DNA from: an uncultured Acidobacteriota bacterium
Lineage (GTDB): Bacteria; Acidobacteriota; Thermoanaerobaculia; Multivoradales; UBA5704
NCBI GenBank assembly: GCA_963799925.1
Contig: CAWCYZ010000004.1
Coordinates: 1,355,170-1,419,169 of the forward strand
DNA length: 64,000 nucleotides
Direction of reading: 5' to 3'
Shown here: in pieces, positions 50,401-56,400 of the stretch
How the letters are laid out: each line of letters opens with the position of its first letter
How positions within the stretch are numbered: position 1 is the first letter of the stretch
The notes under the pieces: generated by a model
Seen by the model: the letters and a program-made list of their open reading frames with translations, nothing else
The model's database searches: none
What the model was told of the DNA's origin: nothing
Position numbers and translations under genes: made by a program

Positions 50401-53400
50401 ATCAACAACCTCGTGCTGCGCCTCGACCTGGGGGGCGATCCGAGCTTCCGGGAGCTCCTGGCGCGGGCGCGGGAGACGGCGCTCTCCGCCTACGCTCACC
50501 AGGACCTCCCCTTCGAAGCGCTGGTCGAGGCGCTGGGGATCGCTCGCGACCCGGCGCGCACGCCCGTCTTCCAGGTCCTCTTCGCCGAGCAGAGCGCGCC
50601 CCTGCACCCGCGTCGACCTGCCAGGCCTTCGCCTCGACCCGCGCGAGATCGACCTGGGCACCGCACGGTTCGACCTCGCGCTCTCGATGGCGCCGGTCGA
50701 GGAGGGGTGGCTGGGGACCTGGAAGTACAGCACCGACCTGTTCGATTCGCCGACGCCGGCGCGCTGGGCGGGGCAGCTCGAGGCGCTCCTCGCCGCCGCG
50801 GCGGCGGCTCCCGACCTCCCCATCTCGCGGCTCGGCTGGCTGACCGCCGGGGAGCGCCATCAGGTCCTCCTCGAGTGGAACGACACGGCGGCGGCCTACG
50901 CGGCAAGGGACGGCCTGCACCACCTGATCGAGGAGCAGGTCGAGCGCACGCCGGACGCCGTGGCCGTCTCGTCTGCCGAAGAGTCCCTCACCTACCGCGA
51001 GCTCGACCGCCGCGCCAACCGGCTGGCCACCCGCCTGCAGCGTCTCGGCGCCGGCGCCGAGAGCCTGGTGGGGATCGCGGCCGAGCGCTCGGTCGAGCTG
51101 ATGGTGGGGCTCTTGGCGACGCTCAAAGCGGGCGCGGCCTACGTTCCCCTCGACCCGGGCTATCCGCCGGAGCGCCTGCGGTTCATGCTCGCCGACGCCG
51201 GGATCGGGGTCCTCGTCACCGGGAGCCATGGGGCTCCGGCCCTGGCGGCTCCCGGCGTCCGCACGGTCTCCGTCGACCCGGGCGATGGCTGGGACGGCGA
51301 GGAGCCGAGCCGCCCCGAGGGCCGGGTCGCGGCGGACAACCCCGCCTACGCCATCTACACCTCGGGCTCGACCGGCAGGCCGAAGGGCGTCCTCGTGCCG
51401 CATCGGGGGATCGTCAACCGCCTGCTCTGGATGCAGGAGGCCTACGGCCTGGCCGCCGACGACCGCGTCCTCCAGAAGACGCCCATCGGCTTCGACGTCT
51501 CGGTCTGGGAGCTCTTCTGGCCGCTCATCGTCGGCGCCCGGCTGGTCATGGCGCCTCCCGGCGCCCATCAGGACGCGGCCTGGCTGGCGCGCCTCGTCAG
51601 CGAGAGCGAGATCACGACGCTCCACTTCGTCCCCTCGATGCTGCAGCTCTTCCTCGAGGGGAAGGACCTCGCCGCCGCCTGTCGATCGGTGCGCCGGGTG
51701 ATGGCGAGCGGCGAGGCGCTACCCCGCGCCCTCGCGGCGCGCGCCCGCGAGCGCCTGGGCGCCCCGCTCCACAACCTGTACGGTCCCACGGAAGCCTCGG
51801 TCGACGTGAGCTGCCACGCCGGAGAGCGCGACGGCGCGAGCACGGTCCCCATCGGCCGCCCGATCGCCAACCTCGTCCTCTACCTCCTCGACCGCGAAGG
51901 GGAGCCGGTCCCCATCGGGGTGCCGGGCGAGCTCTACATCGGCGGCGTCGGCCTGGCGCGCGGCTACCTCGGCCGCCCGGACCTCACCGCGGAGCGCTTC
52001 GTGCCCGCCCCGCCGGTCCCCTCGGGAGAGCCGGGCGCCAGGCTCTACCGGACCGGCGACCTCGCCCGCTTCCTCGCCGATGGCGCCATCGAGTTCCTCG
52101 GGCGCCTCGATCACCAGGTCAAGGTCCGCGGCGTCCGCGTCGAGCTGGGCGAGATCGAGGCGGCCCTGGTCCGCCACCCGGCGGTGCGCGACGCCGTGGT
52201 CGTCGCCCGGGCCGCTGGCGGCGGCGAGGCGCGGCTGGTGGCGTACGTCGTCGCCGCCGGCGGCCCGACGCCCGGCGCGGCGGAGCTCCGGGCCTTCCTG
52301 CGCGAGAGCCTGCCGGAGGCGATGGTGCCGGCGGCCTTCGTCCGCCTGCCGGCCTTCCCGCTCACCCCGAGCGGCAAGGTCGACCGCCGGGCGCTGCCGG
52401 CGCCGGACGAGCGCGGGAGCCCGGCCGACGAGCGCTCCTTCACCGCCCCCCGCAGCCCGCTCGAGGAGCGCCTCGCCGGGACCTGGCGGCGGCTGCTCGG
52501 AGGCGGCCGCGTGGGCGTCCACGACAACTTCTTCGAGCTCGGCGGCGACTCGATCCAGGGGGCGATGTTCGTCAACCGGCTGCAGGAGGAGCTGGGGGAG
52601 ATCGTCTATGTCATGGCGCTCTTCGATGCGCCCACCGTGGCCGAGCTCGCCGCCTACCTCGAGCGCAGCTACCCCGCGGCGGTGGCCCGGCTGGTAGGCG
52701 GCGGCCCGGCCTCCCCGGAGACGACGGTCGCCAGCGCGCCGGCCGACGTGCGGGAGGGGCTCGCCGCCCTCCGCGCCGCCGTCTCCCGGCGCCTCGGCCG
52801 GGGCGAGCGCCCACACCGCGCGGCGCCCGAGCCGCCGGCGGGGCGCTCGCGGCGGAACCCGCGGGCGATCTTCGTCCTCTCGCCCTTCCGCTCGGGCAGC
52901 ACCCTCTTTCGCGTCATGCTGGCGGGGCACCCGCGCCTCTTCGCCCCTCCCGAGCTCGAGCTCCTGGCCTTCCGGTCGATGGCGGAGAGGGCCGGCGCCC
53001 TCTCCGGCCGCAACAGCTTTTCGGCAGAAGGGCTGCTGCGGGCCGTGATGGAGCTCCTCGGCTGCGACGCCGCGGCGGCGAGCCGGTGGGTCGCCGGGTT
53101 CGTGGAGCGCGACGCGCCGGTCGGGGAGCTCTACCGGGAGCTGCAGGAGGCGAGCGATGGCCGCGTCCTGGTCGACAAAACGCCCAGCTATCCGCTCGAC
53201 CTGGCGACCCTGCGGCGAGCCGAGGCCCTGTTCGAAGACCCGCTCTATCTGCACCTCGTACGCCATCCGCGGGCGGTGATCGACTCCTACGTCGAGGCCC
53301 GCATGGAGCGGGTCTACGACTTCCCGTTCGCCGGTGCCGAGCAGGCCGAGCTGGTCTGGCTCCTCAGCCAGCAGAACATCCTGGAGCTCTTCTCCGCGGT

Positions 53401-56400
53401 GCCCGCGGAGCGCGTCCATCGCCTGCGCTTCGAGGACCTCGTCACCTCGCCGAGCGAGACGCTGGGCGCCGTCTGCGCCTTCCTCGGGCTGCCCTTCGAG
53501 CCGGCCATGGCCGAGCCCTACCAAGGGCGCCGCATGACCGACGGCATCCACGCCGAGTCGCGGATGATGGGAGATCCCAAGTTCCACCGCTATCGGCGCG
53601 TCGAGCCGGAGATCGCGGCGCGGTCCCGCGGCGCCGGGAGCCCGCTGCGCGCCGAGACCCGGCAGCTGGCGGAGCGCCTCGGCTATGCGGCGCCCGCGCC
53701 GGCCGCCGTCGCCCTGGGCCGGCGCTCCACCGCCGGGAAGCCGGGCGAGCCGCCGCTCTCCTATCCGCAGGAGCGGCTCTGGTTCCTCGCCCAGCTCGAC
53801 CCGGAGAGCCCGGCGTACAACCTGCCTGCCGCGGTGCTCCTGCGCGGGTCGCTCGACGTGCCGGCCCTGGCGCGGAGCTTCGCCGAGGTGCAGCGCCGGC
53901 ACGAGGTGCTGCGCACCACCTTCCCGGCGATCGAGGGCCTGCCCGTGCAGCGAGTGGCCCCGCCCGCGCCCCGGTGGCCGCTGCCGGTCGTCGACCTGAG
54001 CTCGCTGGCGAGCGCGCCGCGCGGCGCCGAGAGGAGCCGGCTGGCGCTCGCCGCAGGGAAGCGTCCGTTCGACCTCGCCGCCGGTCCGATGCTGCGGACG
54101 ACGCTCCTGCACCTGGACGCCGACGAGCACGTGCTGCTCGTCGCTCTCCACCACATCGTCGCCGACGGCTGGGCGATCGGCATCCTGGTGCGCGAGCTCG
54201 CCGCGCTCTACCCCGAGCTCGCCGCCGGGCGCTCCCCCGGCCTGCCGGAGCTCGCGGTCCAGTATGCCGACTTCGCCGCCTGGCAGCGGCTCGCCCTCGA
54301 CGAGACGGCGATGGCCGAGCACCTGGGCTACTGGCGCCAGCGGCTGTCGGGGCCCCTGCCGTACCTCGAGCTGCCGACCGATCGACCGCGGCCGACCGTC
54401 CTGACGCTGCGCGGCGCCCGCCTCTCGCGCACCCTGCCGGCCGCCGTCCTGGGCGAGCTCCGCGCCGCGAGCGTCCGCTCCGGCGGGACGCTGTTCCTCA
54501 TCCTCCTCGCCGCCTTCGACGCCCTGCTCGCCCGCCATACCGGCCAGGACGACCTCCTCCTCGGCATCCCCATCGCCAACCGCAACCGGCGCGAGCTCGA
54601 GGGCCTGATCGGCGTCTTCCTCAACATGGTCGTGGCGCGCGCCGACGTGGCGGGCGATCCGGCGTTCGAAGACCTGTTCGAGAGCGTCAAGGACGGCTTC
54701 CTCGGCTCGCTCCCGCACCAGGAGGTGCCGTTCGAGCGCCTGGTGGCCGAGCTGCGGCCGGAGCGCGATCTCTCCCGCGCGCCCATCTTCCAGGTCCAGC
54801 TCTCGCTCCAGAACACGCCGAACGCGCCGCTCGCGCTCCCCGGCCTCACCCTCACCCTGCTCGAGGAGCACAACCAGACGACCAAGTTCGACCTCACGGT
54901 CTTCCTCTTCGATCTGCCCGACGGCCTCACCACGACGCTCGAATACAGCCGCGATCTCTTCGACGAGGCGACCATGGCCCGCCTCCTCGGGCACTGGGAG
55001 GTGCTGCTCCGCGGCGTCGCCGCCGACGCCTCGCCGCGCCTCTCGGAGCTGCCGCTGCTCACCCCGGCCGAGCGCGACCTCCTGCTCTACGCCTGGAACG
55101 ACTCGGCGAGCGAGGGCGCGGGTTGGCAGAGCCTGCATCGTCGTTTCGCGGCGCAGGCCGCCCGCCATCCGGGTGCGATGGCCGTGGTCCACGACCTCGA
55201 GACGCTCACCTATCGGCCAATTGAACGCGCGGGCCAACCAGCTCGCCCGCCGCCTGCGCGCGCTCGGCGTGCGAACGGACACTCCGGTCGCCCTCGCGGT
55301 CGAGCGCTCGCTCGACATGATCGTCGGCATCCTCGGCATCCTCAAGGCAGGCGGCGCCTACGTTCCGCTCGATCCCGCCTATCCGCCGGAGCGGCTGGCC
55401 TGGATGCTCGAGGACGCGCTGCGCGACGTCGCGGCCCCGGTCCTGGTGACCCAGGCGCCGCTCGTCGAGCGATTCCTCCCCGCCTCGGCAGGCGGCGAGG
55501 CGACCGTCCCCCGCCTGGTCTTCCTGGACGATCGCGCGGCGCTCGCCGCCGAGAGCGCCGAGGATCTGCCCGAGCTGCCGGACGCCGGCCCGGAGAGCCT
55601 CGCCTACGTGATCTACACCTCGGGCTCGACGGGGCGCCCGAAGGGCGTGCTCGTCTCCCACGGCAGCGCCGGCCGCCTGTTCACCGCGACCGAGCGCTGG
55701 TTCGGCTTCGGCCCCGACGACGTCTGGACGCTCTTCCACTCCTATGCCTTCGACTTCTCGGTCTGGGAGATCTGGGGAGCTCTGCTCTACGGCGGCGAGC
55801 TGGTGATCGTGCCCCGCGAGGTGAGCCGCTCGCCGCAGGCCTTCTACGAGCTGCTGGCGACCGAGCGCGTCACGGTGCTCAGCCAGACTCCGCTCGCCTT
55901 CCGCCAGCTCGTCCACCTGGAGGGCGAGGAGGGCGAGCGCCCGCTGCGGCTGCGCTGGGTGATCTTCGGCGGCGAGGCGCTCGAGCCGGCCATGCTGGCG
56001 CCCTGGATCGCGCGCCACGGAGCGGACCGGCCGGCGCTCGTCAACATGTACGGCATCACCGAGACGACGGTGCACGTCTCCTTCCGCCCGCTGCGCGCCG
56101 AGGACGCCGCGCGGCCGGGCGGGAGCCCGCTGGGAGAGCCGATTCCCGACCTCCAGATTCATCTCCTCGGCCGCCACGGCGAGCTGCTGCCCGTCGGCGT
56201 GCCCGGCGAGATCCACGTCGGCGGCGCCGGCCTCGCCCGCGGCTATCTCGGCCTTCCCGCGCTGACCGCCGAGCGCTTCGTCCCCGCTCCGTTCTCCCCC
56301 CGGCCGGGCGATCGCCTGTACCGCAGCGGCGACCTCGCCCGGCGGCGCCCGGACGGCGACCTCGACTACCTGGGGCGGATCGACAGCCAGGTGAAGGTCC

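Follow-up and report, generated by a model that had tools for sequence, protein, structure and literature searches.

In a 64,000-nucleotide stretch of DNA from an uncultured Acidobacteriota bacterium (contig CAWCYZ010000004.1, positions 1,355,170 to 1,419,169; hereafter, the window), we analysed a nonribosomal peptide synthetase (NRPS) with a sulfotransferase (ST) domain between the thiolation (T) and condensation (C) domains of a module whose adenylation (A) domain carries a serine-type code. With a probability of about one half, this ST O-sulfonates the seryl group tethered to the T domain of its own module (T1), and the sulfate is retained in the lipopeptide. The first-pass annotation of this DNA had offered two outcomes, an O-sulfated serine residue or loss of sulfate to give dehydroalanine (Dha). 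Of these, retention is favoured by three lines of evidence, none of which is decisive.

The window has a G+C content of approximately 75%, and from 47.4 kb to its end the plus strand forms one long coding region, as judged from a plot of G+C at the third codon position (GC3). Pfam analysis showed that the synthetase starts with a fatty acyl-AMP ligase (FAAL), an acyl carrier protein (ACP) domain and a C domain, confirming the starter unit described in the first-pass annotation, and continues with A(Ser)-T-ST-C and, downstream, A-T-C-A-T-C-A-T. The codes of the A domains are, in order, DVWHMSLVDK (Ser, in the module with the ST), DFWSIGMVHK (Thr), DARSLSQMTK and DILQ-GLVWK (Gly). Re-extraction of the Ser code gave the same ten letters as before, and the three following codes agree with the Ser-Thr-X-Gly order already noted. 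The frame at 50576-55213 (+, codon starts = 2 mod 3) encodes 1546 amino acids (aa) with no stops at a GC3 of 0.92-0.99, and its translation includes the motifs given in the first-pass annotation. Pfam matches in this translation were AMP-binding (aa 119-465), AMP-binding_C (526-601), PP-binding (631-695), Sulfotransfer_3 (765-976) and Condensation (1058-1504). The T, ST and following C domain (C2) share one uninterrupted frame (52466-55087), with frame changes flanking T-ST-C and none inside it. The Ser module has the canonical C-A-T core of an elongation module, with the phosphopantetheine serine (GGDS) intact and an HHxxxDG motif (HHIVADG) in C2.

The presence of an ST between T and C, as first proposed, was confirmed. 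The domain matched the Pfam profile Sulfotransfer_3 over positions 2-216 of 216 (E 3e-27), and a phmmer search of PDB sequences returned the CurM ST (4gbm, E 2e-68) and the olefin synthase (OLS) ST (4gox, 1e-63), the third match, the tyrosylprotein sulfotransferase TPST2, scoring only 5e-4. An AlphaFold model built from a 14-sequence alignment (pLDDT 88.7, pTM 0.89) was superposed with Foldseek on 4gbm with a TM-score of 0.92 and on 4gox with 0.88-0.91, other sulfotransferases giving about 0.5. By sequence and by model alike, the domain is a genuine sulfotransferase of the CurM/OLS fold.

Residues were compared in an alignment of 94 STs. Arg39, Gly41 and Thr43 of the loop that binds the sulfonate donor 3'-phosphoadenosine 5'-phosphosulfate (PAPS), together with Glu60, Lys133 and the Arg and Ser of the 3'-phosphate motif, were invariant, and the remaining PAPS-motif positions were near-invariant. 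The window ST shows the consensus at every PAPS-binding or catalytic column (R, S, G, S, T, E, K, R, H, S), with both the 5'-phosphosulfate loop (P/F)RSGST and the 3'-phosphate motif RHP...S present. The CurM residue numbering used here (Glu60, His62, Lys133) is consistent with the 4gbm chain index after a three-residue tag offset. The comparison with 4GBM suggested in the first-pass annotation held for the fold and for the catalytic Glu and Lys, but not for His62: this column is Glu in the window ST (PPELELL versus PPELHLL in CurM), as in 82 of the 94 STs, DysB-like ones included, whereas CurM and OLS have His. The maintenance of the catalytic set across the 94 STs indicates purifying selection for activity, and the embedded ST is apparently an active PAPS-dependent enzyme.

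With the ST region as query, a word-indexed search of 5.8 billion proteins returned 135 relatives, many of them fragments (AMP-binding_C with PP-binding and ST, PP-binding with ST and Condensation, or ST with Thioesterase). To survey whole loci, one genome per GTDB species was scanned with the ST alignment, and the best 79 of at least 585 ST-encoding stretches were analysed, domains being mapped by tblastn with the A, T, ST and C domains of the window plus thioesterase (TE) domains of relatives. The 79 loci are mostly from metagenome-assembled genomes (MAGs) of Acidobacteriota (Thermoanaerobaculia, Holophagales, Pyrinomonadaceae), with some from Nostoc, Chloroflexota and others. Each of them has the ST immediately after a T domain; C-A-T-ST-C is the prevailing order, and C-A-T-ST-TE is frequent. 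The closest loci, L003 and L004 of one Acidobacteriota MAG, have STs of 84-85% identity and the same C-A(Ser)-T-ST-C-A(Thr) order. The arrangement FAAL...C-A(Ser)-T-ST-C-A(Thr) is kept in L001, L002, L008, L009 and L010; L012 and L014 share it as far as the C domain after the ST and differ in the next module, and L003-L005 keep the module order, with no FAAL detected. Some synthetases have two ST modules, either consecutive (L016, L029, L042, L043/L077) or separated (L021); in L016 a Thr-ST module is followed by another Thr-ST module, and in L077 a Tyr-like-ST module is followed by Ser-ST-TE. The ST-bearing Ser/Thr module type is common in Acidobacteriota. Our full-text literature search found no account of an ST in an amino-acid-activating NRPS module of the type A(Ser/Thr)-T-ST; it returned NRPS-embedded STs for cyanopeptolin and dysinosin alone, plus the trans-acting SulN.

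The first-pass annotation had named the tethered seryl hydroxyl as the substrate, and this proposal gained strong comparative support from the codes of the surveyed A domains. The ten Stachelhaus positions were mapped via tblastn alignments, and the window code was read from A-domain motifs including GKVDR. Ser-type codes were found in 28 and Thr-type codes in 27 of the 72 ST modules (together 55/72), versus 7 and 18 of the 152 ST-free modules of these loci (together 25/152). This gives a Fisher odds ratio of 16 and a p-value of 5e-18, which is optimistic for related loci. The bias spans several acidobacterial lineages, other phyla and different module positions. The hydroxyl of Ser and Thr sits on C3 relative to the thioester, and C3 is also where the hydroxyl sulfonated in CurM and OLS substrates is located (PMC11730487). 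The enrichment of Ser/Thr codes in ST modules makes the tethered beta-hydroxyl the likely acceptor, and the lack of an ST in the Thr module of the window shows that the ST domain marks particular residues.

Some ST modules have other codes. In L054, two STs with the full catalytic set (3467-4318 and 11156-12004) follow the Gly codes DILQLGVIWK and DILQLGVIRK; as Gly lacks a beta-hydroxyl, these STs stand outside the Ser/Thr rule. Five ST modules share the Tyr-like code DASTVAAVCK (A-domain starts L029 2046, L042 4177, L048 8144, L060 3037 and L077 3950), the code known from the Tyr modules of aminocoumarin pathways, in which the carrier-bound residue undergoes beta-hydroxylation. A beta-hydroxylase was sought downstream of L077 and L029 (Tyr-like ST modules) and of L074 (unassigned code) and was not found; these downstream regions hold housekeeping genes, TPR proteins and an M19 dipeptidase, and the upstream flanks are NRPS. 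The dipeptidase, a Peptidase_M19 protein (L074 12386-13873, E 9e-117), lies after the terminal A-T-ST-TE module and a 193-aa open reading frame (ORF) without a Pfam match. The M19 family hydrolyses dehydropeptides, and any tie of this activity to L074 is speculative.

Sequence comparison placed the nearest relatives beyond Acidobacteriota in cyanobacterial NRPS loaders, not in polyketide synthases (PKSs). Nostoc loci such as L064 have the order FkbM-FkbH-T-ST-C-A-T-E, where E is an epimerization domain (FkbH E 7e-95); FkbH and FkbM are present in L064 and not in the window. The A-T-ST domains share a mean identity of 54.6% with the Nostoc FkbH-linked STs versus 41.4% with CurM/OLS, and the window ST is 49% identical to that of L064, 44% to CurM and 43% to OLS. 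In a neighbour-joining (NJ) tree, the acidobacterial A-T-ST domains group with the cyanobacterial FkbH-linked STs, with CurM and OLS outside, and the FkbH-linked loader STs appear to be their nearest outgroup. The cyanobacterial loaders DysB and OciA (FkbM-FkbH-T-ST-C) produce sulfated glyceric acid, and the sulfate is kept in the products, to judge from the structures of dysinosins, cyanopeptolin-1138 and oscillapeptin (PMC6520454, PMC2533009); the oci cluster for cyanopeptolin encodes the ST together with glyceric-acid loading domains (PMC2533009). The first-pass annotation had described STs of this type as known from PKS termination modules; T-ST-C occurs also in the loaders OciA (PMC2533009) and DysB (PMC6520454) and in L064.

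We then analysed the domains that follow the ST. Among PDB entries, C2 was closest to the C domains of teixobactin Txo2 and Txo1 (E 1e-100), as against E 4e-22 for the dehydrating CmodAA domain of AmbE (7r9x) and 2e-19 for that of McyA (8jbr). The same PDB profile was obtained for a control C domain (56988-58340) located after the Thr module without ST. C2 looks like an ordinary elongation C domain by these matches, and the Dha-type features for which the first-pass annotation had advised a search were absent. The fourth-best match of C2, PDB 8z0q ('Special condensation domain'), scored within the generic C-domain range, and no paper on it was found. In P0022, the one relative checked for its TE after the ST, the TE best matched that of the AB3403 NRPS (4zxh, E 4e-38), and the CurM TE was absent among its PDB matches. 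A separate clade of post-ST C domains was considered and rejected: the nearest neighbour from another locus was also post-ST in 41 of 60 cases versus a base rate of 31%, much of which is orthology, and identities among post-ST C domains (approximately 45-55%) equalled those with ordinary C domains, giving only partial clustering. An E domain placed after an ST would argue for a retained stereocentre; the surveyed loci hold 14 E domains in total, most of them in cyanobacterial loci, and acidobacterial loci nearly lack them.

Two loci show an unusual end to the assembly line. L011 (5840-13858) encodes a single protein with T-C-A(Ser)-T-ST-C, approximately 160 aa without a recognisable carrier motif and a terminal reductase (R), and this system is followed by two MacB-type permease genes. 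L002 (19949-21551) encodes a terminal A-T-ST-C-TE module within a 1412-aa product (precomputed Pfam) with the Ser-like code DVWHISDVAK, and its ST is the second of that synthetase. Neither in T-ST-C-R of L011 nor in the L002 terminal module is there an A-T for the post-ST C domain to serve; this may reflect an eliminating ST-C pair, or assembly errors or deletions.

Based on these results, we propose that the FAAL-ACP-C starter would N-acylate Ser on T1 of the first elongation module and that the ST would transfer the sulfonate of PAPS to the beta-hydroxyl of this Ser thioester, probably when the Ser is already N-acylated. The sulfonated position would correspond geometrically to the 3-hydroxyl of the CurM beta-hydroxyacyl-ACP and of the DysB/OciA glyceryl-S-T. 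C2 would then hand the N-acyl-O-sulfoseryl group to Thr, leading to a finished lipopeptide of the form N-acyl-Ser(OSO3-)-Thr-X-Gly-.... Acceptor identity, timing relative to acylation and sulfate retention are what we infer, and retention is the weakest step. It is favoured because the DysB/OciA loaders, whose T-ST-C architecture the Nostoc loci share, sulfonate a 3-hydroxy thioester and keep the sulfate, because the A-T-ST domains are closer to these loader STs than to CurM/OLS, with a shared Glu, and because no eliminating partner is visible, C2 and the P0022 TE both being ordinary.

Several points weigh against sulfation with retention. We know of no product of this synthetase and of no O-sulfated Ser or Thr described in bacterial nonribosomal peptides, and to our knowledge the sole biochemically characterised enzymes of the fold, CurM and OLS, install sulfate in order to expel it. 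Chemically, a thioester with beta-sulfonyloxy and alpha-amido groups is poised for E1cB elimination. The equation of L064 with DysB is by architecture alone, and the NJ tree was built without support values (no bootstrap). Ser/Thr codes are missing from 17 of the 72 ST modules, of which 5 are Tyr-like, 2 (both in L054) Gly-coded and the remaining 10 of other or unreadable code, and the phylogenetic kinship of the loci means that the p-value overstates their independence. Genes for PAPS synthesis were absent from the window ORFs that were scanned with Pfam, and frameshifts on both sides of T-ST-C make the expression of an intact synthetase uncertain.

The Dha outcome of the first-pass annotation is the less probable of the two. 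Sulfate would here be a leaving group, with beta-elimination (spontaneous, ST-assisted or by a base of C2) yielding dehydroalanyl-S-T1 and Dha, or a Dha-derived adduct, at position 1; we consider this a weaker alternative to retention, though not a remote one. McCarthy (2012) reportedly described sulfate as the leaving group in CurM and OLS. Dha and dehydrobutyrine (Dhb) are common in nonribosomal peptides, whereas we know of no O-sulfo-Ser or O-sulfo-Thr in them. The ST has the CurM/OLS fold, in which sulfate leaves (PMC11730487), and the Ser/Thr bias is what a device forming Dha or Dhb would also show. On chemical grounds, the acidic alpha-proton of an N-acyl aminoacyl thioester and the excellent leaving-group quality of sulfate would favour elimination, and the ST-C of L011 and L002 without downstream A-T hints at a functional pair. 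These arguments are countered by the domains that would have to cooperate: C2 and the other post-ST C domains look ordinary, the AmbE and McyA scores of C2 being those of the control, and the P0022 TE is not CurM-TE-like. Furthermore, the sulfate stays on a closely similar 3-hydroxy thioester in the DysB/OciA-type loaders, the closest relatives that allow a functional interpretation, and the Tyr-like and Gly-coded ST modules would need prior hydroxylation to eliminate, with no hydroxylase downstream in the three loci checked. With about the same, lesser probability, in-line sulfonation would be a phylum-wide, PAPS-driven route to Dha, Dhb or other beta-substituted residues, in which the ST activates Ser/Thr-S-T and the product of elimination is taken up by a C or TE domain of otherwise ordinary type.

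It is improbable that the ST acts on another acceptor, such as a 3-hydroxy fatty acyl group from FAAL-ACP or a peptide side chain, or that the sulfate is displaced to give an oxazoline, aziridine, beta-lactone, beta-lactam or thioether. The window ST does sit in the lipid-priming module, and the 17 ST modules without Ser/Thr codes, including the two L054 Gly modules with an intact catalytic set, would suit a different acceptor; yet the strong Ser/Thr association also holds for modules distant from a lipid starter, both internal and terminal. Sulfate-assisted ring closure occurs elsewhere, as the title of PDB 22ga indicates ('sulfation-assisted BC-ring formation'), but neither a cyclisation-type domain nor an additional enzyme is apparent beside the ST.

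The coding region of the synthetase switches reading frame four times, at approximately 48050, 48500, 50601-50606 and 55215, as seen in the GC3 plot and translation. The changes at approximately 50601-50606 and 55215 each correspond to one extra base relative to L003/L004 (83-89% nucleotide identity there). Broken frames also occur in both further NRPS genes of the window, and the adjoining non-NRPS genes, MacB-like (42430-44880) and amine oxidase (44916-46568), are intact; the MacB gene is also present in sequencing run ERR11571141. The closest relatives come from long-read (nanopore-type) MAG assemblies in which the NRPS genes are also called in pieces. Single extra bases, with coding statistics unbroken for kilobases, point to recent events or long-read indel errors rather than decay, and the frame changes are probably such indel errors, to judge from these alignments. 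Misassembly as the source of T-ST-C was ruled out by the recurrence of this architecture in dozens of independent MAGs; the domain is not an artefact, as the frameshifts flank it without creating it. That the region is a decaying pseudogene or the ST vestigial, with real frameshifts, is very unlikely: this gene has no fewer than four frame changes and the window's two other NRPS genes have further ones, which would fit, but close relatives lack just one base at each frame change examined, codon-position GC holds at 0.92-0.99 for kilobases in the new frame with no stops, gene calls are split alike in the closest relatives' nanopore-type MAG assemblies, and all ST catalytic residues are conserved.

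Table 1. Features of the synthetase in the window (positions are those of the window)
Feature	Position	Strand	Basis
FAAL loading domain	47443-49203	+	Frames 47443-48051, 48048-~48500, 48499-; Pfam AMP-binding pieces and AMP-dom_DIP2-like; GC3 plot; FAAL-type code DMG...
Acyl carrier domain, loading unit	49282-49467	+	PF00550 E 1.5e-15; aa 262-323 of 48499-50610
Starter C domain (predicted N-acylation of Ser)	49534-50890	+	PF00668 aa 346-701 in frame 1, continuing into frame 2; +1 base ~50601-50606
A domain, Ser-type code DVWHMSLVDK	50930-52378	+	PF00501 and PF13193; code extraction
T1 (peptidyl carrier protein), GGDS phosphopantetheine site	52466-52660	+	PF00550 E 1.3e-14
T-ST linker	52661-52831	+	YP.AVAR stretch after T recurs in other A-T-ST proteins
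ST, CurM/OLS fold	52832-53698	+	Pfam core 52868-53503; PF13469 E 3e-27; 4gbm E 2e-68; TM 0.92
C2 condensation domain, HHIVADG, ordinary elongation type	53747-55087	+	PF00668; best PDB matches Txo2/Txo1
Single-base insertion, C2/A2 junction	55207-55227	+	TAT CGG C CAA versus TAC CGG CAG; blastn to L003/L004
A domain of module 2, Thr-type DFWSIGMVHK, module without ST	55152-56657	+	tblastn; code extraction; Pfam on 55203-63998

The window holds two further NRPS genes. The second (21225-40413, +) has the codes DALWLGGTTK, DVEDAGAITK, DAWPLGT--K, DALWLGGTFK, DVLWLGGFSK and DVEDIGTVMK, with frame changes at approximately 23050, 27500 and 35400. Just upstream of it, two LanB-like proteins of 899 and 812 aa are encoded (13458-16157 and 18546-20984, both +). 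Their Pfam matches were to the Lant_dehydr_N glutamylation domain alone, with no elimination domain detected, and the two may function as tRNA-dependent Ser/Thr dehydratases or as PEARL-like amino-acid ligases with an NRPS product as substrate. The third NRPS (1-11770, -) is frameshifted and has its own FAAL at the start (9767-11770); its ORF at 2565-9884 encodes 2439 aa, with domain matches confined to the first 253 aa, and the last A domain visible in it carries a Ser code (DVWHVSLVD-).

Soil Acidobacteriota have a wealth of biosynthetic genes but hardly any characterised products, and a rule that marks modified Ser/Thr residues would improve structure prediction for many clusters. If the sulfate is retained, O-sulfated Ser/Thr would be installed in cis, a chemistry that we did not find described for nonribosomal peptides. 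If it is eliminated, dehydroamino acids would be formed by sulfate activation, which we likewise did not find described for these peptides. This would be a third way of activating Ser/Thr for dehydration, beside the phosphorylation or glutamylation used for ribosomally synthesised and post-translationally modified peptides and the direct dehydration by CmodAA domains of NRPSs, and A(Ser/Thr)-T-ST would be a PAPS-driven alternative to these condensation domains. In either case, A-T-ST is a compact, excisable unit for testing and engineering carrier-protein-directed sulfonation.

Compared with known systems, the ST is a member of the CurM/OLS family by fold and catalytic residues, located outside the ACP-ST-TE systems of that family. 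CurM and OLS (4GBM, 4GOX) share with it the fold, the PAPS-binding motifs, Glu60, Lys133 and, presumably, a carrier-tethered beta-hydroxy thioester as substrate. They differ in their PKS context of ACP-ST-TE, in the dedicated TE of hydrolysing, decarboxylating and sulfate-eliminating activity that follows the ST in place of an ordinary C domain, and in His62, where the window ST, of 43-44% identity, has Glu. The CmodAA C domains of AmbE (7R9X) and McyA (8JBR) act on T-bound residues derived from Ser/Thr, as a route to Dha would need, but they dehydrate without sulfonation and C2 is not of that type. SulN of the sulfazecin pathway catalyses PAPS-dependent sulfonation of a tripeptide bound to a peptidyl carrier protein before its release (PMC11298585). 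It resembles the proposed ST in sulfonating a carrier-bound NRPS intermediate; unlike the window ST, it is a stand-alone, trans-acting enzyme, and its N-sulfonation of diaminopropionate (Dap) goes together with beta-lactam formation, which a specialised TE carries out.

By position and sequence, the window ST appears nearest to the STs of the DysB/OciA glycerate loaders, minus the FkbH loading. In both, the ST lies between the carrier and C domain of an NRPS with Glu at the CurM His62 position, and a three-carbon acyl thioester offers its 3-hydroxyl as acceptor, as presumed for the window. In contrast, FkbH loads from a glycolytic intermediate, whereas the window synthetase loads via a Ser-coded A domain, and the DysB/OciA residue is a 2-O-methyl or 2-hydroxy acid, whereas that of the window would be an N-acyl amino acid. 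The DysB/OciA STs are known only from starter units of cyanobacteria, and the acidobacterial STs are found in Ser/Thr elongation and termination modules, sometimes in two consecutively. T-ST-C in an NRPS therefore has precedent, and the apparently new element is the ST in Ser/Thr amino-acid-activating modules.

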